The notes: a model not told the origin generated them from the sequence alone. Positions 5,199 through 62,310 are shown, counted from the stretch's first letter. The stretch is 64,000 nucleotides of DNA from an uncultured Candidatus Saccharibacteria bacterium (GCA_964554805.1 CAZKPX010000001.1:317798-381797); one strand, 5' to 3'. Program-made: numbers and translations.

Positions 5199-6218
5199 GT
5201 GTTGGGGGAGGTATTGCTATATACTTATGGTATGAGCGCTGAGTTGCCACAAATACCTGAAAATAGTGTAGACAAGCCGGGCTTGCCAAGTGATGAGCTA
5301 TTCAAGCCGACTGCCGAACAATTAGCAGCATTTGAAACGGTTTATGGGCGAGTGATTGAGGAATTGCCTGAGTTGGCTGATGATATTTCTAAATCACTTG
5401 AGACTCCTCATATTGGACCTTATCATTGTGAAGGGGATATGTTGCAACATCTCCAGCTGATGATTCAGACTTTGGATGATATGCAGACGGGGCGATTTGT
5501 GGAGTCTTTGCCTGAGGGTTATGCGGAGCGATTTAGATTATTGGCTCAGGAGCAGACCCGGTCCTGGGAGCAGTTTATATTTCTGCATGATGTGGAGAAG
5601 CCGAATTGTATGCAATTGAAGCTGGCGACTGAGCCTAAGAGTGTGCGGGTGGACATTAGTTGGGAGGAGTGGAAGGCGATCGAAGCGGCTGGTCGGCCGT
5701 ATCGGTTTGTGGATCCGGCTTCGGGCCAGGAGGCGGTGATCGAGTCGACGGCTTTCTTTCATCAAGGAAACAAGGCGATGGGTCGTCCAGCGGCTAGTCA
5801 TGGTCAGGCGGCGGCGGATAGATTGAGTGATGTGGAGGCTCATCCGGGCGTGGATGAAGCTATTATTCCGTTGATCGCTGATCATGAGTTGGCTTTTAGC
5901 TTCCAGGATAGAATTAATACCCGGACCTACACTAAGCACATTGCTGAGAATCCGGAGTTGGCGAATCGGATTGATGAGTTGATGCTGGTTAATTATCTGG
6001 ATCTAGCATCTTCGTGGAGAGCGGAGACTGGTAAGCCGAATATTGATAGTTTGTTGAATATGATGGTGTCTAGGGCGAATTATGAGTTGGTGCAGCAGGT
6101 GGTGGCTGAGTATGCGGCGAAGGGTGTTGAGGTGAAAGAGGCTGAGATTAATCGTTTGTATAAATTGCCAGTGGAGTTGAATAGGGAGATGGTGGAGCAG
6201 GAATTGCATAAGTCTTAG
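5199..6218 (+). CDS. hypothetical protein, possible HD-domain
   Basis: 339-aa ORF; weak HD-like motifs HCEGD and FLHDVEKP. Confidence 0.45.
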   Translation: MLGEVLLYTYGMSAELPQIPENSVDKPGLPSDELFKPTAEQLAAFETVYGRVIEELPELADDISKSLETPHIGPYHCEGDMLQHLQLMIQTLDDMQTGRFVESLPEGYAERFRLLAQEQTRSWEQFIFLHDVEKPNCMQLKLATEPKSVRVDISWEEWKAIEAAGRPYRFVDPASGQEAVIESTAFFHQGNKAMGRPAASHGQAAADRLSDVEAHPGVDEAIIPLIADHELAFSFQDRINTRTYTKHIAENPELANRIDELMLVNYLDLASSWRAETGKPNIDSLLNMMVSRANYELVQQVVAEYAAKGVEVKEAEINRLYKLPVELNREMVEQELHKS

Positions 6219-6270: not shown

Positions 6271-8565
6271 TTGGTTGATTGTATACTGATGGTTATGGGT
6301 GAGCAATTACTTAATAGATCTGGTGAGAATCAAATAGATGATCAGGGCGCGGTGGTTGAGCCTGTTCTTGAAGAGGCTGAGACAGTCGAGCTTGCTGGTG
6401 AAGATGGTATTGAGCCTGGGATAGATGTTGGCGATATGAGTGATTTGGAAAAAGAATATCTGAAGGCGATGTACAAGAAGTATTCTTCCACTGATGAGAT
6501 GGTAGGGCAAGCGATAGAGTTGATGAGTCAGGAGGAGTTGCGAGAAAAGGGCTCTGAGCTGGCGGTTGAGTGGGCTGAGCAGGTGTTGGTTGAGTTGGCG
6601 CCTCAGTATGCAAAGTCCGATTTTGTTCATCCTTCGATGGGCTCGTCTCAGGTGCAGGAAATGATTAAGACGGTATTGGGCGAACGGGTGGGTTTGGATT
6701 ATGATGGTTGGCACAGCGGTGAAAAGGTGCAGGCTATGGTGGGATTTTTGGATGGGTATGTGGATTTTTGTTTGGATACTCTTGAAGCTGCTGATGGAAG
6801 TGAGCGGGAAGCTGTGCGCAAGTCGGTGCTGGTAATGAACAGCCTTGTCTTTGGCGGCAGTCCAAGCTTGGCTAATTGGGCTGGAGGAATTGACGGGATG
6901 GTAAGACTAGCTGCTCGTTGTAATGGACAGCCTGATATGAGAGAGTCGGCTGGTGAGCGCATTGTGGGTGAGGTTGTGTATCAGATAGCTGGAAATAGCC
7001 AGGTTGAGGTTGTAAGTGAGGGATTGGTCGGGTTGCTGGCTGAGAAAAATGGTCTTGAGCGAATTGAGACAATGGAAGTGTTGAGTCAGGTGGCAAGACG
7101 GTCTTTGGGAGAAGGTGGATGGGCTGGTTCGGTGTGGCGGGGAGTGAGAGAACGGCTGCGAGAAATGAGCAGGCAGGAAAAGCCAATGGTGGCGATGTCG
7201 GCTGATGTAGCTTGGGTAGAGGTTGCACAGACGATGATTCGCTATGGATATGTTATCGATCCGGAGGATTTGAAGTTGGTCGAGGAGCTTGAGAGTAGGG
7301 GCTCTTGGGATGAGCAACTAGAGTTTGATGATCGTTTTGGCTCTTGGGTGACTATTGCTCGGGGTTGTAAGGCTCCGGTTGATGATTGGGGTTATATTCA
7401 GGGGATTGTGTGGGAGGGCGATGGCGCACATAGGTTGCGGTTGGAAGAAGTGACTGATGATGAGAGGATTAACCCCTTGGGGGTGTCGATGCCTGGTCGA
7501 GAAGGAGTGTTGTTGCAGCAGCTCCACCGGCCGGAGATGAGGGGGCGGGTTGAGGAGGTGTTGGGTGTGGAATTGAGTGAAGTTTCTTTGGCTTCGCAGA
7601 TTCATCTGTTGCGATTTATGGTTGAGGCTGATCAGGATCAATTGGGTCGTTTAAAGCAGGTGATGGATAGACATGAAGGAGCTAGGATTGGGCTGTTGGA
7701 GTCTTTTTTGGCTTTGGAGATGGGGGATGAGTTTGGGGAGATTTTACTGGAGATTGCTGAGTCGGTGGATGGGGAGCAGTTGGGGATGATTTTGGGCTGT
7801 GTGGCGGATATTCGTGAGTCGATGCGTGTGATTGCGAATCGGTTTGACTTGGGGGGCAGGGGAGATGGGTATGCTAAGGGGATAAATTTGGCCACGGTAA
7901 AGAGGGTGACTGAGGTTTTGAGTGTAATTCCATCTTTGGCTCGTGAGGAAGGAGTGGTAGCTGTGTCGCCGTATATGAGAGGAACTGCTGAGGTGAAAAT
8001 TGGTCAAATTGAGCATCCGATAGCTGTCTTAAAACTGTTGAACAAGGCTCTGCAGTCGATGGCCAGTGATATGCAGGAGGTCCCACAACAGAATTATGTT
8101 GAAAAGTCTGATCCATCTTTGAATCATGTAGTTTTTGAGAGTGGCAACCGAATGACGATTAGGCCACATGCTTCGGAGGTGGGGGAGGCCCGGATGAGCT
8201 TTAGTGTGGCTCTGACCATGGAGGATTTGATTGAGTGTGGCTATGCGTTGGCCGATGATGATATGTTGACGACTCAGGAGAGGAAGCTGACTATTAGGTT
8301 GGATCTGGAGGAGTCGACAGGCCTGTTGTCTCTGGATATGGGGACGATTGAAGTAAAAGATGGGCAAAAGATGAGATTTGTGGACTTGCTGGTTGGTTTG
8401 GTGGTGACAGCAGGGGCGCAAGAGATGGCCCGGCGGAGGGATTTGCCGATAGATGAGGCCAATAATCATGTCCGGGAGGCTTTTGACCCTGATTTGGCTA
8501 ATCCGGCCAGGTATGGTGATTATTTGGAGAATGTAAAATATAGTTTTGCGCCGGTACCTCTTTAA
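6271..8565 (+). CDS. hypothetical acidic protein
   Basis: 764-aa uninterrupted ORF; no recognisable motifs. Confidence 0.5.
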   Translation: MVDCILMVMGEQLLNRSGENQIDDQGAVVEPVLEEAETVELAGEDGIEPGIDVGDMSDLEKEYLKAMYKKYSSTDEMVGQAIELMSQEELREKGSELAVEWAEQVLVELAPQYAKSDFVHPSMGSSQVQEMIKTVLGERVGLDYDGWHSGEKVQAMVGFLDGYVDFCLDTLEAADGSEREAVRKSVLVMNSLVFGGSPSLANWAGGIDGMVRLAARCNGQPDMRESAGERIVGEVVYQIAGNSQVEVVSEGLVGLLAEKNGLERIETMEVLSQVARRSLGEGGWAGSVWRGVRERLREMSRQEKPMVAMSADVAWVEVAQTMIRYGYVIDPEDLKLVEELESRGSWDEQLEFDDRFGSWVTIARGCKAPVDDWGYIQGIVWEGDGAHRLRLEEVTDDERINPLGVSMPGREGVLLQQLHRPEMRGRVEEVLGVELSEVSLASQIHLLRFMVEADQDQLGRLKQVMDRHEGARIGLLESFLALEMGDEFGEILLEIAESVDGEQLGMILGCVADIRESMRVIANRFDLGGRGDGYAKGINLATVKRVTEVLSVIPSLAREEGVVAVSPYMRGTAEVKIGQIEHPIAVLKLLNKALQSMASDMQEVPQQNYVEKSDPSLNHVVFESGNRMTIRPHASEVGEARMSFSVALTMEDLIECGYALADDDMLTTQERKLTIRLDLEESTGLLSLDMGTIEVKDGQKMRFVDLLVGLVVTAGAQEMARRRDLPIDEANNHVREAFDPDLANPARYGDYLENVKYSFAPVPL

Positions 8566-10711: not shown

Positions 10712-11618
10712 TAGTTTTTTGACAAAATATAAATAGAGTTTATCTGAGATAATAGGCTATTAGTCTATATCTCAGTACCCTAGGCTATTGACATAATGCT
10801 AACTATGGGCTATACTGTGTTCAGTTAAATCGATTAGCTCAGTCAGCTGATTGAGTGATTTAACAAGTACCTTTAAGTTTCTTATAAGCTATTAGTAAGG
10901 ATGAAGTACGTCCGCCAGCTGGCGGATCCCTATATGTTTCATTCTGATTAATAGTAGATATGAATAATGGTGATAACCTGGATCGCTTCGGACGACAGGA
11001 AAGCCTAAATCATTCTACTGAGGCACAGGGTCGCTCTGGCCCGGGGAAACCTGGACCAGGGGATCAGTCTTATCTCCGCCATAATCGACGCGAGACGGCC
11101 TGCTGTATCCATTATTTCCATATCAACTGCTCCACGGCAATACACCCTATCTTTCATCTTCTGATGACGAAAGTATTGCTGGTGGAGAAAGGGGACAGGT
11201 GGTCCAAAAGGAATTACTCAATTCCATATAGATTGCCTGTCCTCAAGCGCAAAATTATTATGGTTGGTAGTTGGCAGTTAGTGGTTGGCGGAGAAAGTCT
11301 CTGCTAACGGATTGCTGAAAACTACTAACGCAATCTGGCAATACCAGATTGTTTCAAGCCTTTGTCTGGTCTGCTTAACCTATCTGAGCTAGACTATCTA
11401 ACCCAATGTTATCCTGAATTTGATTCCGGATATGGGTTGAGATCCTAGTCTAATACTCTGGTTGAGCCGACCAAGCAGATGCTTGTCGGCTCTGTTTGTT
11501 GCCACATGATGGGACGGATGGAGTACACAGCTACGCTGTGTGGTTAGCGGTTGGCAGTTAGCTGTTGGCCGAGAACTGCAGGAAACGAAGAGAGACGTAC
11601 CTTTACAAATCAATAATG

Positions 11619-11713
11619 GCTGCAATATTACCCACCTCTCCGTGGTGCAGCTTCCGCCAGTTGGCGGACCAGCCTTTGGCTGGAGATGAATCCGTATTTA
11701 ACGGTAAACCAAG
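11619..11713 (+). repeat. three-hairpin structured element, b/e family copy 1
   Basis: tccgccagttggcgga hairpin, then ccagcc-ttt-ggctgg, then ccgt-attta-acgg, then taaaccaag; a homolog at 15440-15511 carries compensatory changes. Confidence 0.55.
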
Positions 11714-11737
11714 TGGTAATAGTGGAGACTTTTCGGT

Positions 11738-11844
11738 CCCCTTTAGTGGTTAAAGTGTTTTTGCTGGTCTTACGATTGTTCTCTTCGTCATTGCGAGGAG
11801 CGTAGCGACGCGGCAAGCTGTTTTGTATTAACCATTAAATGGGG
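11738..11844 (+). repeat. R3 structured repeat copy 1 (core tcgtcattgcgagRagcgtagcgacgcggcaa)
   Basis: 14-bp closing helix cccctttagtggttaa / ttaaccattaaatgggg; copies at 14329-14431 and 22101-22205. Confidence 0.6.
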
Positions 11845-11928
11845 CTGAAGGGGGAGAGTCAGAGGTCTGAGACTTGTCTCAGTGCTGATTAGCTCTGCAC
11901 CTGGGTTCGATTCCCGGCAGCTCCACAA
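11841..11928 (+). ncRNA. tmRNA-like tRNA-like domain (88 nt), lacking the mRNA-like body
   Basis: 5' ggggctg pairs with 3' cagctcc, including a G3-U70 pair; T-arm ctggg-ttcgatt-cccgg directly before the acceptor 3' strand; the middle is a simple helix plus hairpin with no tag ORF. Confidence 0.35.
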
Positions 11929-13076
11929 AGTACCCCATCGTCTATGGGGGTGGGCAGGCAGGTGCGTCGCGTCTTGCGATAGCCTCGTTTTGTCCTTCAT
12001 CCTCGAAAGGGATGAAAAAATGACTCAGGCACAGGCACAGGCACAGGCTCAGATTGTAAATCGAGCGTTGTCTTTGGTCGGCCAGGTGCCGACCGACCAT
12101 CCGGCTTCGGCTCGGCGAGCAAGGGCTCGGAGAGCCCCTGCTTGGGGCCGCCAGCAACGTGCTGGCGGAAGTCCGCGCTGCCGACAAGACAGCTAAGGCC
12201 ACCCTAACGGGTGGCAAAAAGAAGCGCAAATAGCGGTTCTGCCCGGTGAGTGACCGGGCGGAAATCAAATAGTCACTTCGAGGTGGACGTCTCGTTAACC
12301 GTATTCTGGTGTGGCCGACCACTGCTGTGCGATTTGCGCAGGAGTTAATTGGCTCCAGACTCATTCTGGAGAATCATATGGGGCTGAACCCCCTGGGAGA
12401 TTGAGGGATCTCCCCAGACAAAAATATCCTTCCTCCAGCTCGGAGCTAGGTGCGCAAGGTGTGCATCTGGAAGAGTTACAATTCTGGCCTACGTCCATTC
12501 CACGGATATGGCCTAGCGAAGGAGGGTCTGTTATGACCTAACTCCGCGGTGGTTGGGGCATGCTTCCCCAACCACCAACAACTTATAGACTGCGAGATAG
12601 ATTACCTCCACGTGGTGCAGTCTGGATAGATAATTCGAATAGATTCCTGTCTACACAGGAATGACGGATTGTTGAACTAAGTATCTAAACAGGAGAGTAT
12701 TCTTCTTCTCAATAGCATAATTCATCGGTCATCAGTGCGCGTTGGTTGTGCTGTTGAGGAGTGGAAACACTTCTCCGGTTACAGCATCTTGCGAGGGTTT
12801 ATATTCCCTCGATCTAGCTCTGCTGAGACTGTTCGTCGTTCTGCTCCAAGCCTATCATGGCTGGGTCAGGGGCGATGCATGGTCGGGCCCTCCGATATGG
12901 GTAGCGGTCTGGTTGGGGACTTTTAGTCCCTGACTAGGCCTCCCGCCTATCTGGGTTGGCTAGTCTGCCCTACAGGGGTATTAGCGGTGCAATGCCGCAG
13001 GCTAAAAATACAGACCAGTGTTCTGACTGCCACTGGGGTTCATTGCAGCCTGCAATGGATTAAACTCTGTAGTCGT

Positions 13077-13269
13077 AAATCCGTACCCTCGAACCGTCAG
13101 GAAGCGGTATTCGCCAATCTGGCGAAGTCCCCGGTTCAGCTCCTCGGACTACGATCCCCCAAAATCGTGTCCGAGGAGAACCCCTCGGCAGCATCCGCCA
13201 ACTGGCGGAGATACGCCTCCTCGTGGCGCTGCTGGATAGTCTATTGAAAGATGGATGAACTGAGTATCT
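13077..13269 (+). repeat. R1 structured repeat copy 1 (about 193 nt)
   Basis: aaatccg..ccgtcagga..cgccaatctggcg..variable hairpin..tccgccaactggcgga..agatac..GAAA-loop hairpin..gtatct; about 85% identical to 14117-14310 with compensatory substitutions. Confidence 0.65.
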
Positions 13270-13335
13270 AGGAGAAGTTTTAGCGTAAAGATTACTTCTG
13301 TCCCAATTAAGATTCAAGGTTGCTTGAGTTTTGGT

Positions 13336-13470
13336 TGGGGGAGGAGTGGTATTAAGACGCTACTTCTTTCGACCCCGTACCGCGTAAGCGGATTGAGTGA
13401 TTCTCAATAGCCTTGGTCGCTTGATTAAGGCTTTCCTGGCGGTGCAGACCGCCGCCGCCCATAGGAGGGC
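13336..13470 (+). promoter_or_regulatory. R2 conserved structured leader upstream of the ORF starting at 13474
   Basis: Shared with 20419-20547: G-run closing stem, ccgc-GNRA-gcgg hairpin (gtaa vs gtga), variable hairpin, ggcggt-gcag-accgcc hairpin just before the GGAGG RBS. Confidence 0.5.
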
Positions 13471-13473
13471 GCA

Positions 13474-13968
13474 ATGGCTATCGTGAAGACAAGCGATGTT
13501 GGTATCCGAGTCAATCAACTCTCTCTAGGGATGTGGAGAGAGTTGGGAATAGAGAAGCCTTCCAGGTTTTCTTTATGGGACTACCTGGAAGGCCTCGACA
13601 GGTCCGTCGAGGCCTTGGGCCTCAGGGGAGTGGCAGTAGCCTCAATGAGGTTCCTGCCAGACGCTGCGGTTGTCATCGTATGGGAGCTACGACTCCCGTA
13701 CGATGAAGCTAGGCGGTTCGAAAGTCTATCTGATGGGCAGAAGGAGCGATTCCTTCTGCCCTTAGACAAACCGCTTGAATTCTCGGAAAAGATTGTGAGC
13801 CTCAACACGGAGAGAAACACCCCTCCATGGGAGAGACTCACAATCTCTGGGACGGATTCGTCTCAGTCGTATCTTAGCAGGCCGACAGATCTCTTGCTTC
13901 AGTCGGAGGCGGAGGCTGCAATTGCAGCTTACCGCAGTCGGCTCGAGGAGCTGGTCTCCTCGCTGTAG
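13474..13968 (+). CDS. hypothetical protein
   Basis: 164-aa ORF; GGAGG RBS 5 nt upstream; preceded by the R2 leader. Confidence 0.5.
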   Translation: MAIVKTSDVGIRVNQLSLGMWRELGIEKPSRFSLWDYLEGLDRSVEALGLRGVAVASMRFLPDAAVVIVWELRLPYDEARRFESLSDGQKERFLLPLDKPLEFSEKIVSLNTERNTPPWERLTISGTDSSQSYLSRPTDLLLQSEAEAAIAAYRSRLEELVSSL

Positions 13969-14116
13969 GTTTTTCTAGCGGTCGCGACCGCTTAGCCCGG
14001 GGTTGACCGGGTGATCTCGAAGCCGTTTGCGTAGAGCGGCATCAACTAGTCTTCTCTACGTCCAGCGCACTGCTGCTGGGGTTAATGACAGCCTGTCATT
14101 GACTAGAAGTGCAGAC

Positions 14117-14310
14117 AAATCCGCAAACCTCTGAACCGTCAGGAGCGGTATTCGCCAATCCGGCGAAGTCCCCGGTTCAACTTCCTCAGGTTGCGACTCC
14201 TTGTCGCACCTGAGGGAGATTCCCTCGGCAGCATCCGCCAACTGGCGGAGATACGCCTCCTCGTGGCGCTGCTGGATAGTCTGTCGAAAGACAGATGAAC
14301 TAAGTATCTA
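14117..14310 (+). repeat. R1 structured repeat copy 2
   Basis: Collinear with 13077-13269. Confidence 0.65.
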
Positions 14311-14328
14311 GCATCAGAGACTTTCTGT

Positions 14329-14431
14329 CTCACTTAGTGGTTAACCTGTTTTTGTTGGTCTTACGATTGTTCTTCTCGTCATTGCGAGAAGCGTAGCGAC
14401 GCGGCAATCTAGTGTTTCGACCATTAAGTGA
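14329..14431 (+). repeat. R3 structured repeat copy 2
   Basis: Closing helix ctcacttagtggtt / gaccattaagtgag; the same core as copy 1. Confidence 0.6.
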
Positions 14432-14568
14432 GGGAGAAATCTCTCTGAAGAAAAGAATCAAAACCCTGGGGAAACTCAGGTCTCTGCCCGTCAGCAGAGG
14501 GAGTGAAGTGTAGTGGCCTGGCAGCGTGCCAAAGCCCGTACCGCTTATGCTCCGCATCCTGTGAAAGG

Positions 14569-15250
14569 GATGAACATGAACTGGCAGTTGATTTTTTCAG
14601 TGGCCTTCGTGGCCACTGTGGCGATCGCTATGATTGCCTTCGCCGGCCGAGAAATCGGCGAGGTGAAGGCGGGCGCCGCCGCCGCGGCGCGAAAGGCCGC
14701 GGCTACGGCCGCGGAGGCTACCGCCCAGAAATGGGCGGTGAAGTACCGCAACCTGGAGGTCCTTCGGGACCTCCAGGCTCTCTTCGGAAGCACCCCTGTG
14801 ACGATCTTTGGATCGTCACAGAAGGGGGGCGGTTTCACCGCCCCCGAACGACCGTCCGACCTCGACCTGATGGTCGAGGTTGACGACGAGACCTGGGCGG
14901 AGTGGGCCGCCCAGGTCTACCCGGCAGATCTCGTCGGGGCGGAAGCCCCCCCAGTTTACAACGACAACTGGGGCGGTGGCGAGACCGCTCTGGTTAGGGG
15001 GAGGACAATCACCGTTCTCCCTTACGAGACGGTCTACCCGACGCGCATTGCGCGCCGGGAGGCCGCCCAGGAGATCCTAGGCATCGAGATTGAGCCCCTC
15101 GGGCTCAATCTCGACATCTTCCTCTTCCCGCACTCGTTTGTGCGGGAAGAGATGACCATCCCGGCTTGGGATGGTGCGGAGACCGGAAGGTCTTTCCGGG
15201 AGGAGGTCCTGGCAGGAGTCAAGCTCTCTGAGCTTCAGCCTGCGGACTAA
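14569..15250 (+). CDS. nucleotidyltransferase (Pol-beta/MNT superfamily) with an N-terminal TM helix
   Basis: Motif IFGSSQKGGGFTAPERPSDLDLMVEVDD (GS-x9-SDxDL); N-terminal hydrophobic helix WQLIFSVAFVATVAIAMIAF; Ala-rich linker. Confidence 0.6.
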
Positions 15251-15439
15251 TGACCCTCAGCGCACTGCTGCGCTGGCTGACGACGCATTCGTTGGCGAAA
15301 TGAAGCAGATAGACCTTACCTCGGATCCTTCGCGACTGAGATGGTCGAACCCCGGGGAGCGTAAGCTCTCTGGGGAAACCCATGGCAGCAATTGATTCGC
15401 CTCTACGATGGCTCGCCTAGCCGAAATGCTAGTGCAGGC

Positions 15440-15511
15440 TGGCGCTGCTTCCGCCGGTTGGCGGACTGGTCTTTTGACCAGAGATGAATCCGTCTTGAAC
15501 GGTAAACCAAG
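15440..15511 (+). repeat. three-hairpin structured element, b/e family copy 2
   Basis: tccgccggttggcgga, then ctggtc-tttt-gaccag, then ccgt-cttga-acgg, then taaaccaag. Confidence 0.55.
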
Positions 15512-15661
15512 AATCAAAAATAAACGACATTGATGTCTCCAGGCTACTTGCTGGGGAACAATCAGGGGGCTTTTAACGTTGACCCCTGGTTGTTCCTTGG
15601 GCAGGGAACTAAAGCCAGCCGCGGGTGCGGTAGGCTGAACAATTGCCCTAGAGGAGGCCCT

Positions 15662-16012
15662 ATGGCCACCAAATTCATCAATCTAACCCCTCATACGATC
15701 AATGTTGTTGTTGTTGGGGAGGAGGGTGACGTTGTCGCCTCCTTCCCGGCTTCGGGACAGGAGGCTCGGGTGGCAACCACCCGGGAGCTGTCTCATAACC
15801 TCGACGCCGATGGTGTCGGGATCCCGGTCTTCAGGACCGGGTACGGGGAGATCGAGGGGCTGCCGGCCCCCGAGGCCGGCACTATCTTCGTCGTCTCTGG
15901 TCTGGTGGCTGCGGCCACCGACCGTGATGACGTCGTCTCTCCGGGCGAACTCGTCCGGAACTCCGAGGGGCAGCCGATTGGCTGCCGGGGGTTCTCCCGC
16001 CCCGCTCGATAG
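15662..16012 (+). CDS. hypothetical protein
   Basis: 117 aa from ATG 15662 with a gaggagg RBS; the longer ORF is open from 15530. Confidence 0.45.
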   Translation: MATKFINLTPHTINVVVVGEEGDVVASFPASGQEARVATTRELSHNLDADGVGIPVFRTGYGEIEGLPAPEAGTIFVVSGLVAAATDRDDVVSPGELVRNSEGQPIGCRGFSRPAR

Positions 16013-16209
16013 GGAGAGTTCGGTGGGTGTCCGAACTAAAATAACCACCCCAATTCCAGCCAGTGTGTCTGTGGCTGGGGGTTGGCTGTTGCTTGCAGCT
16101 GACGAAACAAATCTTCGGACATAGGGACCTAACCTGCTGCGGAAGCCTTTGGGTGACTAAGGCAATATCGGTTCCGGCTCCTGGGATGGTGAGATTACTC
16201 ATCGTTCTA

Positions 16210-16303
16210 GGAGACCTTCGTGGCAGCATCCGCCAACTGGCGGAGATACGCCTCCTCGTGGCGCTGCTGGATAGTCTGTTGAAAGATGGATGAACTAAGT
16301 ATC
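16210..16303 (+). repeat. R1 repeat, 3' half only
   Basis: ggcagcatccgccaactggcggagatacgcctcctcgtggcgctgctggatagtctgttgaaagatggatgaactaagtatc. Confidence 0.6.
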
Positions 16304-16658
16304 AGAAGGAAGAGTTTATTTTTGTTCTTAGCCCGTTGCTCTTAGGTGCCTAGTTGACCCTATTGGAAGATAGGGCCAATGGGTTGATTATTTAGCTGAG
16401 AGCAGCGTGGTGGGAATGAAAGAGTTGACGGCTTCTCGGGTGAGGAGCTTTTGGTGTATCTGGGGAGTGAGCAGGTATGCCGGGAGCTCCTCATTGAGGA
16501 GCGCAACCTAGGTGAATTGCAGTAAAAACTCTTTTGGGCAACCCTGCCCGATGCCGTAGGTGCTCTGGATGAAATTGAGCGCTGAATGGAAGTCAGTTAA
16601 AGACTGGCCGAGCAGGGTGGGTATTGTCGCGAGACGCCCCTGGCTCGAAGGAGTTGCT

Positions 16659-19600
16659 GTGAGCAACAATATTCTTCTTCCAATCTCCGCTTATCGGGCG
16701 GAGATTGAAGCAGGGGTGGATGGCGATTCGGTGGTGGTTGTCACCGCTGAAACGGGGACTGGGAAAAGCACGCAAGTGCCGCAGTACATGTTGGAGGCTG
16801 GGTATGATCTGGTAATCACCCAGCCGCGTCGGCTGGCCGCCCGAACAGTGGCCCAGCGAGTGGCCGAGGAAATCGGTCAGGAATTGGGCGGAATTGTTGG
16901 TTATCGGACGGCGGAGGATCGGCGAGATTCGTCGGACACCCGCTGTTTATTCGTGACCGATGGTCTTCAGCTTGTTCGCGAGCTGATGGGTCATGGGAAG
17001 CGGCAAGTTTTGATTCTGGACGAGGTCCATGAATGGAACGAGAACCTGGAAGTTCTCGTTGCCTGGGCCAAGCTCCAGATCGAAACTGGAGCTGATTTCA
17101 AGCTAGTGCTGATGAGCGCTACGCTTGAAGCCGACAAGTTGGCCGCCTATTTTGGTGGTGCGCCAGTTATCTCGGTTCCAGGCCGACTGTTTCCGGTGAC
17201 GGAGCAGAAGCCAGGAGGTTCGGTGGAAGCCGACGTTGCGGAGCTGGTTCGCCAGAGGCGCAATACACTGGTATTCCAGCCGGGCAAGGCGGAGATTGAG
17301 GCCACCTGTGCTGCTTTGCGGCAGATGCAAGTGTGGGCTGAGATTTTGCCTTTGCATGGGCAGTTGACCGCCGAGGAGCAGGCTCGCTGCTTCCGGCATT
17401 ACGGTAAACCCAAGGTGGTGGTGGCATCAAATGTGGCGCAGACCAGCGTCACAATTGACGATATCGACGCCGTTGTCGACTCCGGCATGGAGCGACGGAT
17501 TGAGTTGGTGGATGGGGTTGAGGGCTTGTACCTTAAGCCTATTTCGCTGGCTGATTCTGCGCAGCGCCGGGGTCGAGCTGGTCGGACGAAGGCAGGGATC
17601 TATATCGATCGCTGCCCGAGTGTCGACCGACCGGAGTTTCCGGTGGCCGAGATCCTGCGCAAGCGGCTCGACCAGACGGTACTCCGGTTGGCCAGTGCTG
17701 GGTTTGACATGGAAGAGCTGGAATTCTTCCATCAGCCTGACAAGGCTGACATCCACGAGGCTCGTCAGTCTCTAGTGGCTCTCGGCTGCATGACAGCGGC
17801 TGGAGAAGTCACATCGATGGGGAGACGGGTTAACAAGCTGCCGGTGTCAGTGCAGTATGCGCGGATGCTGGTGGAAGCTGAGCGGTTGGGGGTGGTGGAC
17901 GATCTCCTGACTGTGGCAGCTATCTTGGAGCAGGGCGGTATTACAGTTGCCCCCCCAAGTCGGTCTAATCTGACCCGACCTGATTGGCGCCGAATGGTGC
18001 CGCAGGAGCAGGAGTCGGATATTCTTGGTCAGCTGGTTGTCTATAAAATGGCAGCTGAGATGACCAATGACCAACTCTATCAGAGTGGGGTGGCTCTGAA
18101 GGCCTATTATCGGGCTAAGGAGATCCGCTCTCATTTGGCGAGGGCTCTGGGCGCTCGGTTCCATTCTGGTTCAACGGGTCGCCGCGAGGACATCCTCAAA
18201 GCGGTCTGTGCCGGGATGGTTGACCATCTCTACCATGGCACTGGTGGGGGATGGAAGAATGGTGACGATACTGTCCGAGAACTGGGCAGTTCGTCGCTGG
18301 TTCAGAATGCCAGTTGGTTGGTGGGTCGGCCTTTTGACCTGCAGATCAAGGCACGCTATGGGCATACCACCCTGCGCCTGATCGAGCTGGCGTCAAAGGT
18401 TGAGCCGAACTGGCTGGTCGAAGTCGCTCCGCATTTGGTGGAGCAACAGACTGGCCTGCAACCTCGCTTTGATGACCGGAAGGGGGTGGTGGTTTCGACC
18501 ACCAAGACTCTCTTTAATGGTCAAGAAGTGGGGGAAGAGGAGGTTGTGGATCGGGAGCACCCCGAAGCAGCCGATCTCTTTGCTGGCTGGCTGGCTGGGC
18601 TGAGTCAATCTCGGGCGGAGAGTCTGGGGTTGGAAATTATGGTTCGCAATCTGGCTCGCAACCAACGAGCTAAGGAGCTGAACCAGCGGGCCGGCGAGAC
18701 CCTCTTTGGGGTGGTTGAGCTGCAGGCTTGGTATCTTGCCAAGCTGGAGGGCGCTGGCAACTTTAAGGAGGTGGTGGAGAAGCAGGTGGCTGCGAAGTGC
18801 CTGCTGCCCGATCTCGACCAGGATTTGATTGATCTGGTGCTCCAAGAGCAGCCAGACTCGATTGAGTTGCTGGGCGAAGGCCTGAAAGTAGAGTATGTTG
18901 ATGGCTACGGTCATCGGCGTACTCACCCTAGAGTTCGGTTGTCGGATCAGCAGATTCAGGCGAAGGCCTGGCTTGAGCTGTCTGATGACCAGCCGGTTCG
19001 CCTGTCTGGCGGGCGAATGGTTGAAGTGGCGGTTGAAGTGGCTTATACTACTTTCTCCTCTACTGAGCCATTCCTGCTGAAGGAGCGGGTGCGCGAGTAC
19101 CTGAACCAGAAGCAGTGGGACGCCTGGCATCGACCAGAGGTCTCAGTTGAGGGGCTGGAGTCGGCAGATCAGATTCCGTTTATGACCGCTGTCTATGGAC
19201 AGTGCGTGGTGACGGGGCAGGATCTGCTGGCTTACGGTACCGTTCGGGCACGCCGGTATTGGTCCAGGATTGATCGCTGGCAGCCGGTGTGGGTTCGGTC
19301 TCTTGATGAGGCTGAACGGGTTCGATCCGAGGCAGTGGCAGCACTTGAAGAGGTGCGAGCTGAAGCTGAGGTGAAGGCTATGGAGTCCAGATTGAAGATT
19401 CTGGATGCCCATAACGGCTGGTTCTACCTTGATCGCTCGTCGGAGGCTTATAAGCGCCTTCAGGGCATAATGGTAGAAGTCCCGCCCGCTAGTCGGGAAT
19501 GGTTGATAGAGGCGGGGCGACTGGTTGAAGAGCTGGCTCCTGCCCTTGAGCAGGCCGAGCAAGATGGCTTGGCTGCTGAACAGGCAGCTAAGGCTGAGCA

Positions 19601-20090
19601 ACAGCAGATCGAAGAGAAGGCGGCTGGAATATTGGCTGCGGTCAATCCCAGTGGTCATCACAACTTTGGTTTGGCTGAGGTTCGGTTGGCGAGCCAGTTG
19701 GCCGAACAAGCGGTTCGGCTGGTGGGACAAGCCCGGGCTCAGGCGATCTTCCGAGAGGAAGCGGATGCTTCTTATCGAAGATCGCTCAAATGTCAGCGAA
19801 TCAGAGAGGCTATTCCTGGTTTGTTTGACACGGAAGTTGGGTCGCGGTTCCTCCAGATTCCGGCGCGGTATGTCACCGAATGGTGGTTGCAAGCGACGGC
19901 ATTGTGGTTGGAATCGAATACCACCACGTCGACCGAGGAGTTGCCTGCTCCTGCTCCTGCTCTGATTGAGCTGGAAGAGCAGCCGACGGTGTCAGTTTTG
20001 GCTGTCAAAGAACAGTCTGCCGAGGAGGCAGAAGAGTCTTTTGACAGTCCTATGGCGCTAGCAATGCGTCGGGCCGGGATTAAGTTTTAA
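16659..20090 (+). CDS. DEAH-box (HrpA/HrpB-like) ATP-dependent helicase with a roughly 450-aa C-terminal extension
   Basis: Walker A TGTGKSTQVPQ, DEVHE box, helicase-C and HA2-like region QRRGRAGR; GTG start at 16659 with an aaggag RBS matches the HrpB N-terminus (LPI..); the ORF is open from 16560. Confidence 0.85.
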   Translation: MSNNILLPISAYRAEIEAGVDGDSVVVVTAETGTGKSTQVPQYMLEAGYDLVITQPRRLAARTVAQRVAEEIGQELGGIVGYRTAEDRRDSSDTRCLFVTDGLQLVRELMGHGKRQVLILDEVHEWNENLEVLVAWAKLQIETGADFKLVLMSATLEADKLAAYFGGAPVISVPGRLFPVTEQKPGGSVEADVAELVRQRRNTLVFQPGKAEIEATCAALRQMQVWAEILPLHGQLTAEEQARCFRHYGKPKVVVASNVAQTSVTIDDIDAVVDSGMERRIELVDGVEGLYLKPISLADSAQRRGRAGRTKAGIYIDRCPSVDRPEFPVAEILRKRLDQTVLRLASAGFDMEELEFFHQPDKADIHEARQSLVALGCMTAAGEVTSMGRRVNKLPVSVQYARMLVEAERLGVVDDLLTVAAILEQGGITVAPPSRSNLTRPDWRRMVPQEQESDILGQLVVYKMAAEMTNDQLYQSGVALKAYYRAKEIRSHLARALGARFHSGSTGRREDILKAVCAGMVDHLYHGTGGGWKNGDDTVRELGSSSLVQNASWLVGRPFDLQIKARYGHTTLRLIELASKVEPNWLVEVAPHLVEQQTGLQPRFDDRKGVVVSTTKTLFNGQEVGEEEVVDREHPEAADLFAGWLAGLSQSRAESLGLEIMVRNLARNQRAKELNQRAGETLFGVVELQAWYLAKLEGAGNFKEVVEKQVAAKCLLPDLDQDLIDLVLQEQPDSIELLGEGLKVEYVDGYGHRRTHPRVRLSDQQIQAKAWLELSDDQPVRLSGGRMVEVAVEVAYTTFSSTEPFLLKERVREYLNQKQWDAWHRPEVSVEGLESADQIPFMTAVYGQCVVTGQDLLAYGTVRARRYWSRIDRWQPVWVRSLDEAERVRSEAVAALEEVRAEAEVKAMESRLKILDAHNGWFYLDRSSEAYKRLQGIMVEVPPASREWLIEAGRLVEELAPALEQAEQDGLAAEQAAKAEQQQIEEKAAGILAAVNPSGHHNFGLAEVRLASQLAEQAVRLVGQARAQAIFREEADASYRRSLKCQRIREAIPGLFDTEVGSRFLQIPARYVTEWWLQATALWLESNTTTSTEELPAPAPALIELEEQPTVSVLAVKEQSAEEAEESFDSPMALAMRRAGIKF

Positions 20091-20418
20091 TCTTTGTCGT
20101 GAGGCGGAGGCCTCGTATCAATACTCCAGCGGCTTGTGTTGACCGCTGACTGCCTACAGCGTGTAGGTAGTAAATTCTCAACACATCGGGCCTGTCCGTT
20201 ATTGACGGAGAACGACCCATTGGGTAGGGGGCTAAAACCCCTACCTACTTTACGGCTGCATATACATGCCTCTTCGTGGCGTAGCTAGAAATTCGTTTAT
20301 GTGACGAAGCTAAATGTATGAGAAGTGGAAGAAAGCTTACTTCTGTCTCAATCAGAGCTTGAGACTTTAGGCGTAGATTCCGGATCTAGTCCGGAATGAC
20401 GGCCTTTTGAGCTTTGTT

Positions 20419-20547
20419 TGGGGGGAGAAGTGCTATTAAGACGCTACTTCTTTCGTCCCCGTACCGCGTGAGCGGATTCAGCATCTCAATCCCCGGCCAC
20501 TTGGCTGGGGTTGTTGGCGGTGCAGACCGCCCACGCCTTTGGAGGGC
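20419..20547 (+). promoter_or_regulatory. R2 conserved structured leader copy 2
   Basis: Homolog of 13336-13470, directly upstream of the ORF starting at 20551. Confidence 0.5.
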
Positions 20548-20550
20548 AAA

Positions 20551-20994
20551 ATGATCATCTGCCCCACCATTTACTATTGTCATCCCGGGCAGGAGATACT
20601 TCTGCCTGTGGGGGCGGTCCGTCTGCAAGGGCAGGCGGATGGTTGGTGGGTGGGGGAAGATATCCCTCATCTGCCGTTTGGCCAGAGAAGGGTGAAGGGA
20701 GGGGTCTTCATTGTAGAGGAGGACCTCTCCGATCCCTCGTTCTATGTGGAGGTTGTTATCCTCCACAATGTGAATGAGGGCCTGCCTGGGGCCATCCCCG
20801 CGCTGTTGATTGGGATTGGGGAAGCAGCGCCCCTTGCTGTCCCCAGTAAGAGTGCCTATCGCACTCTGACCGCCGAGGCTACATGTCCTCACTGCGGTTG
20901 TGGTCGCGATTTTAGGCAAAGCTGGGTGGCGGTCGAAGGCTGTTATTTCTGCGATACAGCCATTCGTTCCCCGTTCAGTATGAGCCCAAGCTAG
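20551..20994 (+). CDS. hypothetical protein with a C-terminal Cys4 zinc-ribbon
   Basis: CPHCGCG..x16..CYFCD; GGAGG RBS; the overlapping minus-strand ORF 20386-20919 was rejected. Confidence 0.45.
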   Translation: MIICPTIYYCHPGQEILLPVGAVRLQGQADGWWVGEDIPHLPFGQRRVKGGVFIVEEDLSDPSFYVEVVILHNVNEGLPGAIPALLIGIGEAAPLAVPSKSAYRTLTAEATCPHCGCGRDFRQSWVAVEGCYFCDTAIRSPFSMSPS

Positions 20995-21300
20995 ACTGAA
21001 CCCCGGAGAGCTGGAGGCTCTCTGGGGAACCCAATGGCAGTATCCCCAACTGGCGGAGATACGCCTCCACGTGGCGCTGCTGGAATAGTGCTTATTGTCA
21101 GGCTGAACTAAATTCTGCAGAATAAATCTGCGAATAAATCCAAACAGGATGACATTGAGTATTAACTGAGTATCTGAGGGAGAGTTTTTTCTGTCCGCTT
21201 TAGTTTTTTGATTATGAAAATTGATGCTATGGGTACGTTGTTGCTCGGTGTCGATGGTGAGTTAAAAGATTGAAGCGGGGAGATGAATGATGGAGGCTGG

Positions 21301-21478
21301 GTTATGGCAGTGTGCTGTGGCGGCTTCTGTCGGGTATATTTGACATAAGCTGGGCTTGTGACTAGGAACCCGTTTCTGAAATTTGTCTGTGGCCTTGAGG
21401 AAGATAGGGCTGAGGGGTTATAGTGCGGTTGATGTTTTTTAACGGTTAGCCGCTATTTCGGAGACGGGTTTTTGGTAA
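21301..21478 (+). repeat. R4 direct repeat, left copy (about 178 nt)
   Basis: About 93% identical to 22267-22440. Confidence 0.7.
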
Positions 21479-21597
21479 GTAGGGGGGATTGCCGGTCCGC
21501 TTGAGGCTTTTGGGTAATGAAGCTTGAAGTGGGGTGGTATGTGAGGGCAGGGAAAGATTCTCTGCTTGGGACCTCCCAATTAGAAAGGAGGGGTGCA

Positions 21598-21789
21598 ATG
21601 CACCCAGTCTTTTTCTTGCTAGCAATAGCGGCCACGCTGGCCGCTATTGGAGCAGTCGCTTGGCTGCTCTTCGGCTTCCATCAGGACACTCGGAAGGCGC
21701 TCGAGGTCTCCGTTGAGACCCGGGTTGCCATTGCGGCGATCCTGATCGGCACGGCCGCGATTGGCTGGTGCCTGGCGGTATCGGTTTAG
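21598..21789 (+). CDS. small two-TM membrane protein (63 aa)
   Basis: MHPVFFLLAIAATLAAIGAVAWLLFG..AIAAILIGTAAIGWCLAV; followed by a perfect hairpin cgaggaaggagg..ccttccttcctcg. Confidence 0.35.
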   Translation: MHPVFFLLAIAATLAAIGAVAWLLFGFHQDTRKALEVSVETRVAIAAILIGTAAIGWCLAVSV

Positions 21790-22007
21790 CGTGGTGGTCG
21801 AGAAAACCCGCGAGGAAGGAGGTTATTACCTTCCTTCCTCGGGGGAATACATTTTATATTGGAGAAGGAGTTGGTTTTGTAAGTGAGAAGAAAGAAGAGA
21901 GATCTTGTGGAGCAACAGGCGACAAGCGACCCCGATAGATCGGGGCAGGCTCGGCGACGAGACCTGGATTTGCGAAGCAAGCAACAGTGAACCTTAATAA
22001 TCAAATA

Positions 22008-22085
22008 ATGGCTGCAATATTACCCATCTCTCCGTGGTGCAGTCTGGATAGTCTGTTGAAAGACGGATGAACTGAGTATCTGACA
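22008..22085 (+). repeat. R1-variant repeat (ggctgcaatattaccca..ccgtggtgcag..ctggatagtctgttgaaagacggatgaactgagtatct)
   Basis: Shares its 5' module with 11619-11650 and its 3' module with R1. Confidence 0.55.
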
Positions 22086-22100
22086 TCAGAGACTTTCTGT

Positions 22101-22205
22101 CTCGCTTAGTGGTTGAGCTAGTTGACGCTTGTTTATGATTGTTCTTCTTGTCATTGCGAGAAGCGTAGCGACGCGGCAATCTAGTCTATTTGACCACTGA
22201 GTGAG
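22101..22205 (+). repeat. R3 structured repeat copy 3
   Basis: Closing helix ctcgcttagtggtt / gaccactgagtgag, with G-U and A-U substitutions relative to copy 2. Confidence 0.6.
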
Positions 22206-22266
22206 GGAGAAATCTCTCTGAAGATCGGATGGCCTGTCAGTCAAGGCGGGTAGGAAGAGTGGTTGG

Positions 22267-22440
22267 GGCAGCAGTGTGCTGTGGCGGCTTCTGTCGGGTA
22301 TATTTGACATAAGCTGGGCTTGTGACTAGGAACCTGTTTCTGAAATTTGTCTGTGGCCTTGAGGAAGATAGGGCCGAAGGGCTATAGTGAGATTAACTTG
22401 TTGTTAGTCACTATTTCGGAGACGGGTTTTTGGTTGGAAT
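22267..22440 (+). repeat. R4 direct repeat, right copy
   Basis: See 21301-21478. Confidence 0.7.
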
Positions 22441-24354: not shown

Positions 24355-24637
24355 ACTGATTCTCGCTAAGGATTTAGGTTCTTTGAGAGATGAGACGAGT
24401 GGTCCGGGTTATCGTGGAGGCGATACCCGGACTTTTTCTGTTGTCGGCACTTTGTTGGTATTAAATGTTGCAACAAGTTTTATTATGCCCTTAGGATGTA
24501 TGCTTGAAATTGAGGGGGAGAGCTGATAGAATAAGCCGTGTTCCGGCTATGTAGTGAACAGAGAAAAGAAGACGTGAGAAGTTTTTACAATCCTATATTC
24601 CTCGGTAGCTCTCCGCCAGCTGGCGGAGGCAGAGTAT

Positions 24638-25180
24638 TTGAAAATGGTTGTCTATGCTATTTACAATCAGAAGCATGATAAGATTTATATCGGTCAGACC
24701 GAAGATCTTGATTTGCGTCTCGACCTGCACAATAGTAAAGACTTCATTAAAAGCTACACTGCACGATTTGATGGCGTATGGAAGTTAATTTACCAAGAAG
24801 CAGTTGGTAATCGAGTAGAAGCTCTAACTCGCGAAAAGCAGCTTAAATCTTATCGCGGCAGACAATTCATAAAATCTTATATTCCTCGGTATCCGCCAGC
24901 TGGCGGGAGGAAGCTGCCACTCATAACAATGTGGTATGTCTACTGCCTATATAATTATGATAATGATAAGATTTATATTGGTTATACGGGCGATTTTGAC
25001 AGGCGCATTATTGAACACAATCTCAAGAAAGATAAAAGTTCGTATACTGCAAGGTTCGACGGTGAGTGGGTTTTGATTTATAAGGAAGAAGTCTCCAACA
25101 AATCAGAAGCTGCAAAACGTGAAAAGTCTTTAAAGTCGTTCAGGGGGCGTGAGTATTTACAATCTTATATTCCTCGGTAG
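24638..25180 (+). CDS. tandem double GIY-YIG nuclease (two YhbQ/UPF0213-like modules fused in one ORF)
   Basis: Module 1 VYAIYNQKHDKIYIGQTEDLDLRLDLHNS..SYTARFDGVWKLIY; module 2 VYCLYNYDNDKIYIGYTGDFDRRIIEHN..SYTARFDGEWVLIY; each ends ..SYIPR encoded by aatcttatattcctcggta; the stop codon overlaps the tRNA-Asn 5' end. Confidence 0.7.
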   Translation: MKMVVYAIYNQKHDKIYIGQTEDLDLRLDLHNSKDFIKSYTARFDGVWKLIYQEAVGNRVEALTREKQLKSYRGRQFIKSYIPRYPPAGGRKLPLITMWYVYCLYNYDNDKIYIGYTGDFDRRIIEHNLKKDKSSYTARFDGEWVLIYKEEVSNKSEAAKREKSLKSFRGREYLQSYIPR

Positions 25181-25245
25181 CTCAATGGCAGAGCAGGAAG
25201 CTGTTAACTTCAAGGTTGTTGGTTCGAATCCAGCCCGAGGAGCCA
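25171..25245 (+). tRNA. tRNA-Asn (anticodon GTT)
   Basis: Acceptor tcctcgg/ccgagga; D-stem gctc/gagc; anticodon loop ctGTTaa; T-arm gttgg-ttcgaat-ccagc; gCCA encoded. Confidence 0.85.
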
Positions 25246-62195: not shown

Positions 62196-62310
62196 ATATT
62201 GCCATTGCGAGGGAATGTCAGGACCGCGGCAATCTAGCTTATGATGCGGCTGGATTGCCGCGCTTCGCTTCTGCCATGGGGCGGACAGGCGCAATGACGA
62301 GCAGCGACAT
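62196..62310 (+). repeat. inverted pair of hairpins related to the R3 core (cattgcgag..cgcggcaatc)
   Basis: gccattgcgagggaatgtcaggaccgcggcaatctag plus an inverted copy ggattgccgcgc..gcgcaatgacg. Confidence 0.45.

Follow-up and report, generated by a model that had tools for sequence, protein, structure and literature searches.

The intercistronic processing hairpins of phage T7 are RNase III sites, cut by a protein nuclease, and RiboJ, reportedly described by Lou et al. in 2012, is said to be an engineered insulator made of a hammerhead-type ribozyme and a 23-nucleotide (nt) hairpin. Repetitive extragenic palindromic (REP) elements and their doublets (REPINs) are short imperfect palindromes, often inverted pairs that form ~100-nt hairpins, with a GTAG flank and a lineage-specific distribution. 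Work attributed to Nunvar (2010) and to Bertels & Rainey (2011) reportedly has them mobilised by REP-associated tyrosine transposases (RAYTs). The biological role of bacterial hepatitis delta virus (HDV)-like and hammerhead ribozymes is still largely open. The theta ribozymes of gut phages are associated with tRNA 3′ trailers (PMC10879173), and ribozyme processing of bacterial polycistronic transcripts has been suggested but not established (PMC6765202). Here, we analyse a stretch of 64,000 nt (the window) from an uncultured Candidatus Saccharibacteria bacterium (GCA_964554805.1 CAZKPX010000001.1:317798-381797), in which an original prediction had described a structured repeat, R3, in three copies of about 105 nt, lying next to a second repeat, R1. 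R1 belongs to an array of nine predicted HDV-like ribozymes (Rz1 to Rz9), and R3 represents a single subtype within a group of at least six post-ribozyme hairpins that have a basal helix in common.

The three R3 copies share the core CATTGCGAGRAGCGTAGCGACGCGGCAA, which has exactly three exact matches in the 64 kb (at 11789, 14380 and 22152, all on the + strand) where shuffled sequences lead one to expect none, and their alignment has a mean column identity of 86%, so the three copies with a shared core are as first described. The core string quoted for them needs a correction for copy 3, which reads cttGTCATT rather than tcGTCATT. Folded as + strand RNA over the extents first proposed, copies 1 to 3 reach -41.6, -44.6 and -44.2 kcal/mol (z = -5.4, -6.7 and -4.8), and the minus strands of the same stretches reach -27.2, -29.2 and -22.9 kcal/mol. 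The helix is thus real, but the length of about 105 nt falls short of it: pairing continues outward to give hairpins of 124-136 nt with 49-56 pairs, 10-11 of them G.U with the U mostly in the 5′ arm (Table 1). The arms of a fourth copy align with the closing helix of the first three, and copy 2 keeps its fold when folded jointly with ribozyme Rz4. The closing helix had been predicted to covary between copies, and the quoted strands are present and pair as stated; 94% of the cells in the three-copy alignment are paired, as against 42-50% when the partner column is slid, and both-sided pair changes number 6 where shuffles give 2.4, a count reached by 2 of 500 shuffles. One such change lies inside the core, where GAGGAG in copy 1 stands against GAGAAG in copies 2 and 3, with CUCUUC and CUUCUC, respectively, in the 5′ arm. 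Among these three copies, the covariation is real but thin.

It becomes stronger in the wider family of hairpins to which R3 belongs. A covariance model was built from the three copies and scanned over the 64 kb, and among its best weak matches on the + strand are exactly the hairpins that follow Rz2, Rz3, Rz6, Rz7 and Rz8. Six hairpins could be aligned gap-free from one common anchor and have in common a basal helix of the form 5′ CUUCU-G-UCYC / 3′ GRGG-G-AGRAG, in which 105 of 108 cells are paired. The pairs that never change across the six are one U.G, two C-G and one A-U, and a G.G mismatch adjacent to the invariant U.G is retained in five. Both-sided changes in the basal helix include transversions (C-G/G-C; U-A/A-U/C-G; G-C/A-U/U.G), and the alignment holds 24 G.U cells and not a single A.C cell. 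Because compensation extends to transversions, A.C cells are absent and an invariant U.G stands beside variable neighbours, we conclude that selection acts on the pairing of the + strand, RNA being the simplest form in which it would do so. In each of the eight post-ribozyme hairpins, moreover, the + strand folds more stably than the minus strand, by 14-30 kcal/mol. Since copy 4 and the hairpins after Rz3 and Rz7 carry other tips, the tip is dispensable, and what is functionally conserved in R3 is the base of the helix, not the core.

How these hairpins are placed is equally regular. Copies 1 to 3 begin 5-6 nt past the last helix of Rz1, Rz4 and Rz9, and copy 4 begins 8 nt past Rz8. R3 had been placed directly 3′ of R1 in two places, which understates the association, as it holds at all three copies, the element upstream of copy 1 being a variant of R1; the suggested composite R1-R3 unit is borne out, with R1 as its HDV-like ribozyme. 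Downstream of Rz3 and Rz7 (13269-13400 and 20320-20485) there is, in addition, a chain of alternative pairings (GGAGAAGU / ACUUCUGUCC / GGGGGAGGAGU / ACUUCUUUCG), followed by a common 61-nt module (13337-13397 and 20421-20481, 92% identical); the chain looks like a switch or attenuator.

Table 1. Coordinates of the R3 hairpins, predicted ribozymes and associated features in the window (dG+ and dG-, folding energies of the + and minus strands).
Feature	Position	Strand	Score or remark
R3 copy 1, 124-nt hairpin	11729..11852	+	dG+ -52.8 vs dG- -30.1 kcal/mol
R3 copy 2, 135-nt hairpin, 55 pairs	14314..14448	+	dG+ -61.1 vs dG- -43.8 kcal/mol
R3 copy 3, 136-nt hairpin, 56 pairs	22086..22221	+	dG+ -62.0 vs dG- -37.8 kcal/mol
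R3 copy 4, homologous basal helix, other tip without GTCATTGCGAG core	21183..21298	+	-41.7 kcal/mol, z -5.8; R3-model match 19.8 bits
Hairpin after Rz3, basal helix as in R3	13291..13350	+	R3-model match 23.1 bits
Hairpin after Rz7, basal helix as in R3	20334..20434	+	R3-model match 18.7 bits
Long hairpin after Rz2, more distant R3 relative	12688..12780	+	R3-model match 21.9 bits
Long hairpin after Rz6	16320..16421	+	R3-model match 10.7 bits
Generic palindrome GTCATTGCGAG..GCAA at R3 tip	11787..11818 (copy 1); 14378-14409; 22150-22181	+	pattern match
Rz1, predicted, atypical HDV-like, no GG for P1.1, large P4; directly 5′ of R3 copy 1	11618..11722	+	
Rz2, predicted HDV-like ribozyme	12588..12686	+	
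Rz3, predicted HDV-like ribozyme (R1)	13187..13268	+	
Rz4, predicted HDV-like ribozyme (R1); directly 5′ of R3 copy 2	14227..14308	+	
Rz5, predicted, atypical HDV-like, P4 domain in common with Rz1	15384..15518	+	
Rz6, predicted HDV-like ribozyme, upstream of helicase gene	16222..16303	+	
Rz7, predicted HDV-like ribozyme, downstream of helicase gene	20254..20319	+	RF02682 35.1 bits
Rz8, predicted HDV-like ribozyme, expanded P4; directly 5′ of R3 copy 4	21036..21174	+	
Rz9, predicted HDV-like ribozyme; directly 5′ of R3 copy 3	22010..22080	+	RF02682 13.6 bits across the whole model
tmRNA-like element, tRNA-like domain, 88 nt	11841..11928	+	RF00023 42.8 bits, E 2.4e-14, below gathering score 47
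Candidate strong sigma-70-like promoter (TTGACA-17-TATACT), facing into the region	10788..10816	+	consensus match only

The identity of the upstream partner rests on architecture. R1 matches an HDV-like ribozyme in Rfam weakly (Rz4, 14.9 bits against drz-agam-1), and Rz7 gives a better match to RF02682, HDV-F-prausnitzii (20255-20321; gathering score 44; E = 0.002 when 14.8 kb were searched, 1.4e-5 in the local search), and on the strength of these two matches the HDV fold was mapped onto the repeats. All nine elements lie on the + strand within 10.5 kb (11618-22080), between genes for proteins of no known family, and the helices of a nested double pseudoknot (P1, P2, P3, P1.1, P4) can be listed for each. 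P1 has 6-7 pairs counted from G1, which is usually in a G.U pair, and P3 has 3 pairs around an L3 loop of the UCCUCGC type, reading UCCUCGU, UCCACGU or UCUUCGU. A GG is available for P1.1 except in the atypical Rz1 and Rz5, which have none after P1, while Rz7 has AG together with a change of L3 from CC to CU, a compensated pair. P4 frequently ends in a GAAA loop, and a C-N-R-A junction (CUAA, CUGA or CCAA, with the catalytic C in J4/2) directly precedes the 3′ strand of P2. P2 itself covaries over five sequences (GAUAC/GUAUC, AGAUA/UAUCU, AUACAU/AUGUAU, UUGAUUC/GAAUCAA and AUAUUAC/GUAAUAG), and the P4 domain of Rz1 and Rz5 holds a covarying hairpin (CCAGCC/GGCUGG versus CUGGUC/GACCAG). A hand-written descriptor of structure only, with sequence required only at G1 and C-N-R-A, was run with shuffle controls; it has 6 matches, all on the + strand and all in the ribozyme region (Rz9 is missed), compared to 0.26 in shuffles of the region and none on the minus strand of the whole window, although it is loose enough to yield 1.13 chance matches per 64 kb over both strands. 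By their architecture, Rz1 to Rz9 are very probably HDV-like ribozymes, with self-cleavage as the predicted activity. Rz9 looks like a chimera of an Rz1-type 5′ half and an R1-type 3′ half.

Several further observations concern the ribozymes. The 14-bp palindrome CCGCCARYTGGCGG occurs at 10912, 11654, 13195, 14235, 15451, 16230, 24613 and 24893, and also at 44600 and 48980; four ribozymes carry it as an insertion in J1/2, the fourth of them (Rz8) in degenerate form, Rz1 and Rz5 have it in P4, and further sites lie beside an ORF with GIY-YIG domains (ORF, open reading frame) and upstream of the ORF at 10960. It resembles another small insertion element of palindromic type or, alternatively, a binding site. 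The ribozyme-R3 junction UGAGUAUCUGACAUCAGAGAC (22073-22093) gives a weak Rfam match to Ocean-VII (14.2 bits, gathering score 53.5), an RNA for which our literature search found no paper. A search of IMG/VR for relatives of the ribozymes gave two chance matches inside coding sequence, and a longer pattern gave none; our literature search found no paper linking HDV-like ribozymes with Patescibacteria or the Candidate Phyla Radiation (CPR). In two Logan contigs from the same organism (L121 and L133), short-read unitigs end exactly at the ribozyme repeats, L121 corresponding to window positions 13213-14251, so that fragmentation or collapse of the region is likely in other assemblies.

Related CPR contigs share the TrmB-to-helicase neighbourhood of the window and carry neither R1 nor R3. 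In the window, the helicase gene is flanked by Rz6 upstream and Rz7 downstream. In contig L130, hammerhead type III ribozymes lie on either side of the helicase homologue (1524-1578 and about 5460-5515), one with 48.9 bits, at or above the gathering score, and the second found by pattern. In contig L134, a hammerhead (554-608, 42.4 bits) precedes a homologue (65% identity) of the 116-aa gene at window ORF 15662-16012. A long hairpin follows the first hammerhead of L130 and the hammerhead of L134. These ribozymes stand in the same position relative to the helicase and 116-aa genes as those of the window, and the hairpins are likewise long, rich in pyrimidines on the 5′ strand and in purines on the 3′ strand; they differ in ribozyme class, in having no sequence similarity to R3 and in lacking the GTCATTGCGAG core. 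That a different ribozyme class occupies the same gene position suggests that the cut itself, and the hairpin after it, are what matters. A further contig, L135 (1-11939, JGI 3300020578), carries about 25 small + strand ORFs separated by spacers of 200-280 nt built from repeated modules: a TTGACA..TATAAT-like promoter, a ribosome site of sequence AAGGAGGG and arms in inverted orientation, TCAGGTYRCAA..TTGCAACCTGA. Rfam gave no ribozyme in this array, whose cassette-like layout is reminiscent of the ribozyme region of the window.

Taken together, we lean towards R3 being a leader hairpin, the second module after an HDV-like ribozyme, which serves as a folding insulator and 5′ stabiliser of ribozyme-delimited transcripts. 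The region from 10.8 to 22.3 kb would be transcribed on the + strand, and the promoter-like sequence at its start could drive a long transcript across it. Each ribozyme would then cut at its own 5′ edge. The upstream RNA would end just past a GC-rich, stable hairpin, present ahead of seven of the nine and stopping 4-11 nt short of the predicted cleavage site, while the downstream RNA would start with the 5′-OH of the ribozyme and reach the R3-type hairpin 5-8 nt beyond it. By folding locally and fast, this hairpin would shield the ribozyme fold from downstream sequence and give the cleaved RNA a stable, structured 5′ end, and its conserved G.G mismatch may be a site for a protein or nuclease. 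The analysis shows the anatomy of the hairpins, their strand, covariation, lack of coding and adjacency to the ribozymes, and the pattern in related contigs; transcription, cleavage and the insulator or stabiliser role are inferred from these.

A number of observations weigh against this assignment. Every HDV-like element scores below its Rfam gathering score, and a canonical P1.1 is missing from Rz1 and Rz5. The copies, confined to a single 10.5-kb region in one genome, are related by recent duplication, so the covariation counts are not independent events. Of the seven other helicase loci examined, five show no ribozyme; at a sixth, L138, the hammerhead matches (207-289 and 7176-7258) are weak and do not adjoin the helicase. 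The + strand of the window is rich in G and T (G/C 1.62, T/A 1.12), which by itself favours G.T over A.C in decaying palindromes; this bias leaves the transversion compensations, the full lack of A.C and the invariant U.G unexplained, and for that reason we retain selection on the + strand. Finally, the conserved G.G/U.G internal loop equally suits a nuclease or protein site.

The tip of R3 suggests a different origin, namely that R3 is selfish DNA: a REPIN-like or MITE-like (miniature inverted-repeat transposable element) inverted doublet of GTCATTGCGAG..GCAATC that landed beside a ribozyme, was copied along with it and, if active, acts as a single-stranded DNA hairpin. We consider this unlikely, though the core does behave as such a model would have it. 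The pattern CATTGCGAGNAGCGNAGCGACGNNGCAA matches more than 120 IMG/VR contigs with unrelated flanks, and the palindrome GTCATTGCGAG..GCAATC is also present in Bradyrhizobium, Qipengyuania, a Sphingomonadales metagenome-assembled genome and Faecousia, as well as on plasmids of Methylosinus, Methylocystis, Novosphingobium, Legionella and Halomonas, a spread over Alpha- and Gammaproteobacteria, Firmicutes and phages. Its architecture, taken from 318 instances, is GTCATTGC-GAG-[variable perfect stem, GNA or AAA loop]-CGNR-GCAATC, in which the inner stems are perfectly Watson-Crick and freely variable; the tips of copies 2 and 3 match it in full, and copy 1 ends in GCAAGC. It is often an inverted pair that makes a long hairpin, as at 62201-62300 in the window, between two convergent glycosyltransferase genes and outside the ribozyme region. 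Relatives of the core, GTCATTCC..GGAATC and GTCATCC..GGAT, lie on the minus strand at 12640-12666, 20377-20403 and about 21135-21153, where they occupy the tips of three helices, namely P4 of Rz2, the post-Rz7 hairpin (GTCATTCC..GGAATC) and P4 of Rz8, in the opposite orientation to the R3 cores. Since GTCAT-type palindromes stand at helix tips in both orientations, they behave as small insertions tolerated there, independent of orientation, and the 5′ arm of R3 opposite the core resembles a decayed (C-to-T) complement of it. By these pattern matches, the core is a short, widespread palindrome nested at a dispensable tip and not specific to R3.

Selfish DNA accounts for the tip, however, and not for R3 as a whole: the basal helix persists without the core in copy 4 and in two more hairpins, every copy follows a ribozyme at a distance of 5-8 nt and the 64 kb hold no copy in any other place, no target-site duplication is seen at the hairpin ends, and the ORFs scanned, which were part of those in the window, gave no domain of a transposase, RAYT or integrase. 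Nor would it lead one to expect the G.U cells without any A.C or the invariant U.G of the basal helix. Candidate identities of this kind were set aside individually. A MITE has inverted ends, and these are present (CAGAGAC..CTCTCTG, bordered by gcat and aaga in copies 2 and 3), but without flanking target-site duplication. An integron attC site would need the core sites R″ and R′ (RYYYAAC and GTTRRRY) and an IntI integrase close by; GTTRRRY matches in copy 3 only (GTTGAGC) and not in copies 1 and 2, and no integrase is among the scanned ORFs. For a REP or REPIN, the copies occur only beside ribozymes in the 64 kb, the flank is GTCAT and not GTAG, and the scanned ORFs hold no Y1 transposase domain.

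Two observations on the palindrome stand apart: in IMG/VR, it lies inside same-strand ORFs in 62 cases and opposite-strand ORFs in 15, by crude ORF calls, and no name or description of GTCATTGCGAG..GCAATC was found in the searchable literature, where literal sequence and peptide strings returned primers only. R3 itself gave no such spread. An R3-specific pattern has no match in IMG/VR, GTDB representative genomes gave 5 chance matches only, all of them generic palindromes, JGI metagenomes gave none, and blastn against INPHARED phages gave none; with the patterns and collections used, no relatives of R3 were found outside this genome. The large-RNA families to which the original prediction pointed (HEARO, OLE/GOLLD-like, IS605-associated) did not turn up at R3 either: Rfam 15, which includes HEARO, GOLLD, ROOL, OLE and the IS605-associated RNAs, has no match there at gathering score, none with E<=5 over 14.8 kb and none with E<=10 over 261 nt. 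A wider caution follows for repeats of this type, as a 'conserved core' may be a nested, widely spread palindrome rather than the functional centre.

The helix of R3 could also be a recognition site for a nuclease or another protein (RNase III, for example), cut or bound along its ~50 bp, either to strip the ribozyme off the mRNA or as a means of control. The invariant non-Watson-Crick features next to variable neighbours would fit such a site, and the helix is longer than double-strand-specific nucleases require. At copy 1, R3 overlaps a tmRNA-like (transfer-messenger RNA-like) element, which combines a T arm with an acceptor stem bearing G3.U70 and lacks an mRNA-like domain. The outer 3′ strand of the hairpin (11841-11852, GGGGCUGAAGGG) is also the 5′ end of this element, and the 5′ arm of copy 1 has CGG in place of CUG, which preserves pairing with GGGGCUGAAGGG. 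In the predicted fold of 11618-11960, copy 1 keeps GGGGCUG from its acceptor partner and so competes with the acceptor stem; under the recognition-site reading, R3 would sequester the 5′ acceptor strand until processing. After Rz3 and Rz7, similarly, ACUUCUGUC can pair with the upstream GGAGAAGU or with a downstream GGGGGAGRAGU, in switch-like fashion. Against this, copies 2 and 3 have no tRNA-like element downstream and the nuclease or binding protein is hypothetical; a recognition site in place of a passive insulator is improbable. Near the tmRNA-like element, a GGGGGUG farther downstream is compatible with the permuted-tmRNA model as well (24.6 bits), and AUGGGGCUGAA occurs a second time, at 12380; with its thresholds lowered, ARAGORN returned nothing but noise here. 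The element may be a relic, a processing signal or part of a split tmRNA.

The chance that R3 is instead a small-protein gene on the minus strand (MPRRYASRNDEKNNRK..) is practically nil, and the original prediction was right to take this peptide for a by-product of nucleotide conservation: frames of 61-62 codons are open in copies 1 and 3, but the start would be TTG with no convincing ribosome-binding site, a stop follows after 25 codons in copy 2, the copies differ evenly over codon positions (4/6/5, 6/7/7 and 2/2/3) with 4-10 non-synonymous against 1-2 synonymous changes, no protein among 5.8 billion has three 5-residue words in common with the 61-residue frame of copy 3, and the same peptide-like strings appear wherever the generic palindrome occurs. 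No start signal, no frame intact in all copies, no purifying selection and no homologue was thus found for it.

R3 is best regarded as a probable leader or processing hairpin with a REP-like palindrome nested in it; more unusual than R3 itself is the array of ribozymes and hairpins that surrounds it. More speculatively, and with a low chance of being right in full, the 11-22 kb region may be an RNA cassette system, in which ribozymes cut one long transcript into gene-sized units with 5′-OH and 2′,3′-cyclic-phosphate ends, the ribozyme-R3 head provides a common handle and hammerheads do the same job in related CPR lineages. Such a handle could serve, for example, RtcB-type circularisation, selective stabilisation or the shuffling of cassettes between genomes. 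Together with the hammerheads at equivalent positions, the locus offers a concrete, testable model of ribozyme punctuation of polycistronic RNA in CPR bacteria, within which mutation of R3 can reveal what the hairpin contributes.

The genes around the array are those of a bacterial chromosome, with DnaG, RpoD, FtsH, PolA, a sortase and glycosyltransferases recognised by domain scans, and the helicase (16560-20090) has its closest named relatives in Kaiserbacteria, Nomurabacteria and the 'Patescibacteria group', which places the bacterium in the CPR. From 10.9 to 25.2 kb, GC content is raised, long ORFs are few, repeats are many and the proteins are mostly of no known family. The GC skew of the + strand is 0.04-0.51 in all 2-kb windows but one, and the majority of genes are on that strand. 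One small hairpin, CAUCCU..GAAAGGGAUG, followed by AA.A.AUG, recurs in front of the ORFs at 12020 and 14570 (hairpins at 11999-12022 and 14546-14572). Directly after R3 copies 4 and 3 lie two small ORFs (21283-21348 and 22229-22312) with the identical ending ..AVCCGGFCRVYLT*; they sit in a 124-nt repeat (21307-21430 and 22271-22394) that is 95% identical and so too similar for judging selection on them. A single ORF (24638-25180; window 24586-25245, +) encodes a tandem pair of GIY-YIG nuclease domains and runs with its final codons into the beginning of tRNA-Asn (25171). The sequence TACAATCYTATATTCCTCGGTA, which contains the 5′ end of this tRNA, is present three times (24586, 24870 and 25158), and two of these copies carry the palindrome CCGCCAGCTGGCGG.

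Set beside the systems described at the outset, the Rz elements are closest to the minimal HDV-like ribozymes, RF02682 and the theta ribozymes (PMC10879173), with which they have in common the nested double pseudoknot, an L3 of the type CCUCYUCGUGG, the C-N-R-A junction and cleavage, here predicted, at their own 5′ edge. They are unlike these in their sub-gathering scores and in that several have a J1/2 palindrome of 16 nt or a large P4. In contrast to theta ribozymes, nine copies lie within 10.5 kb between protein genes, not after tRNAs, and each is followed by a long conserved hairpin, of which our literature search found no description for theta ribozymes. The tip of R3 resembles REP and REPIN elements in being a short imperfect palindrome that forms inverted pairs and gives rise to recurrent spurious peptides. 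R3 differs from them in its GTCAT flank, in a palindrome of the same sequence across phyla, in the lack of a RAYT gene among the scanned ORFs, in a conserved base unrelated to the palindrome and in a position fixed after ribozymes. In layout only, the Rz-R3 unit recalls RiboJ, where a self-cleaving ribozyme is followed by a hairpin in a 5′ leader, and R3 recalls the T7 hairpins, which stand at the processed ends of polycistronic RNA; however, RiboJ is engineered, hammerhead-type and carries a hairpin of 23 nt, and T7 relies on a protein nuclease.

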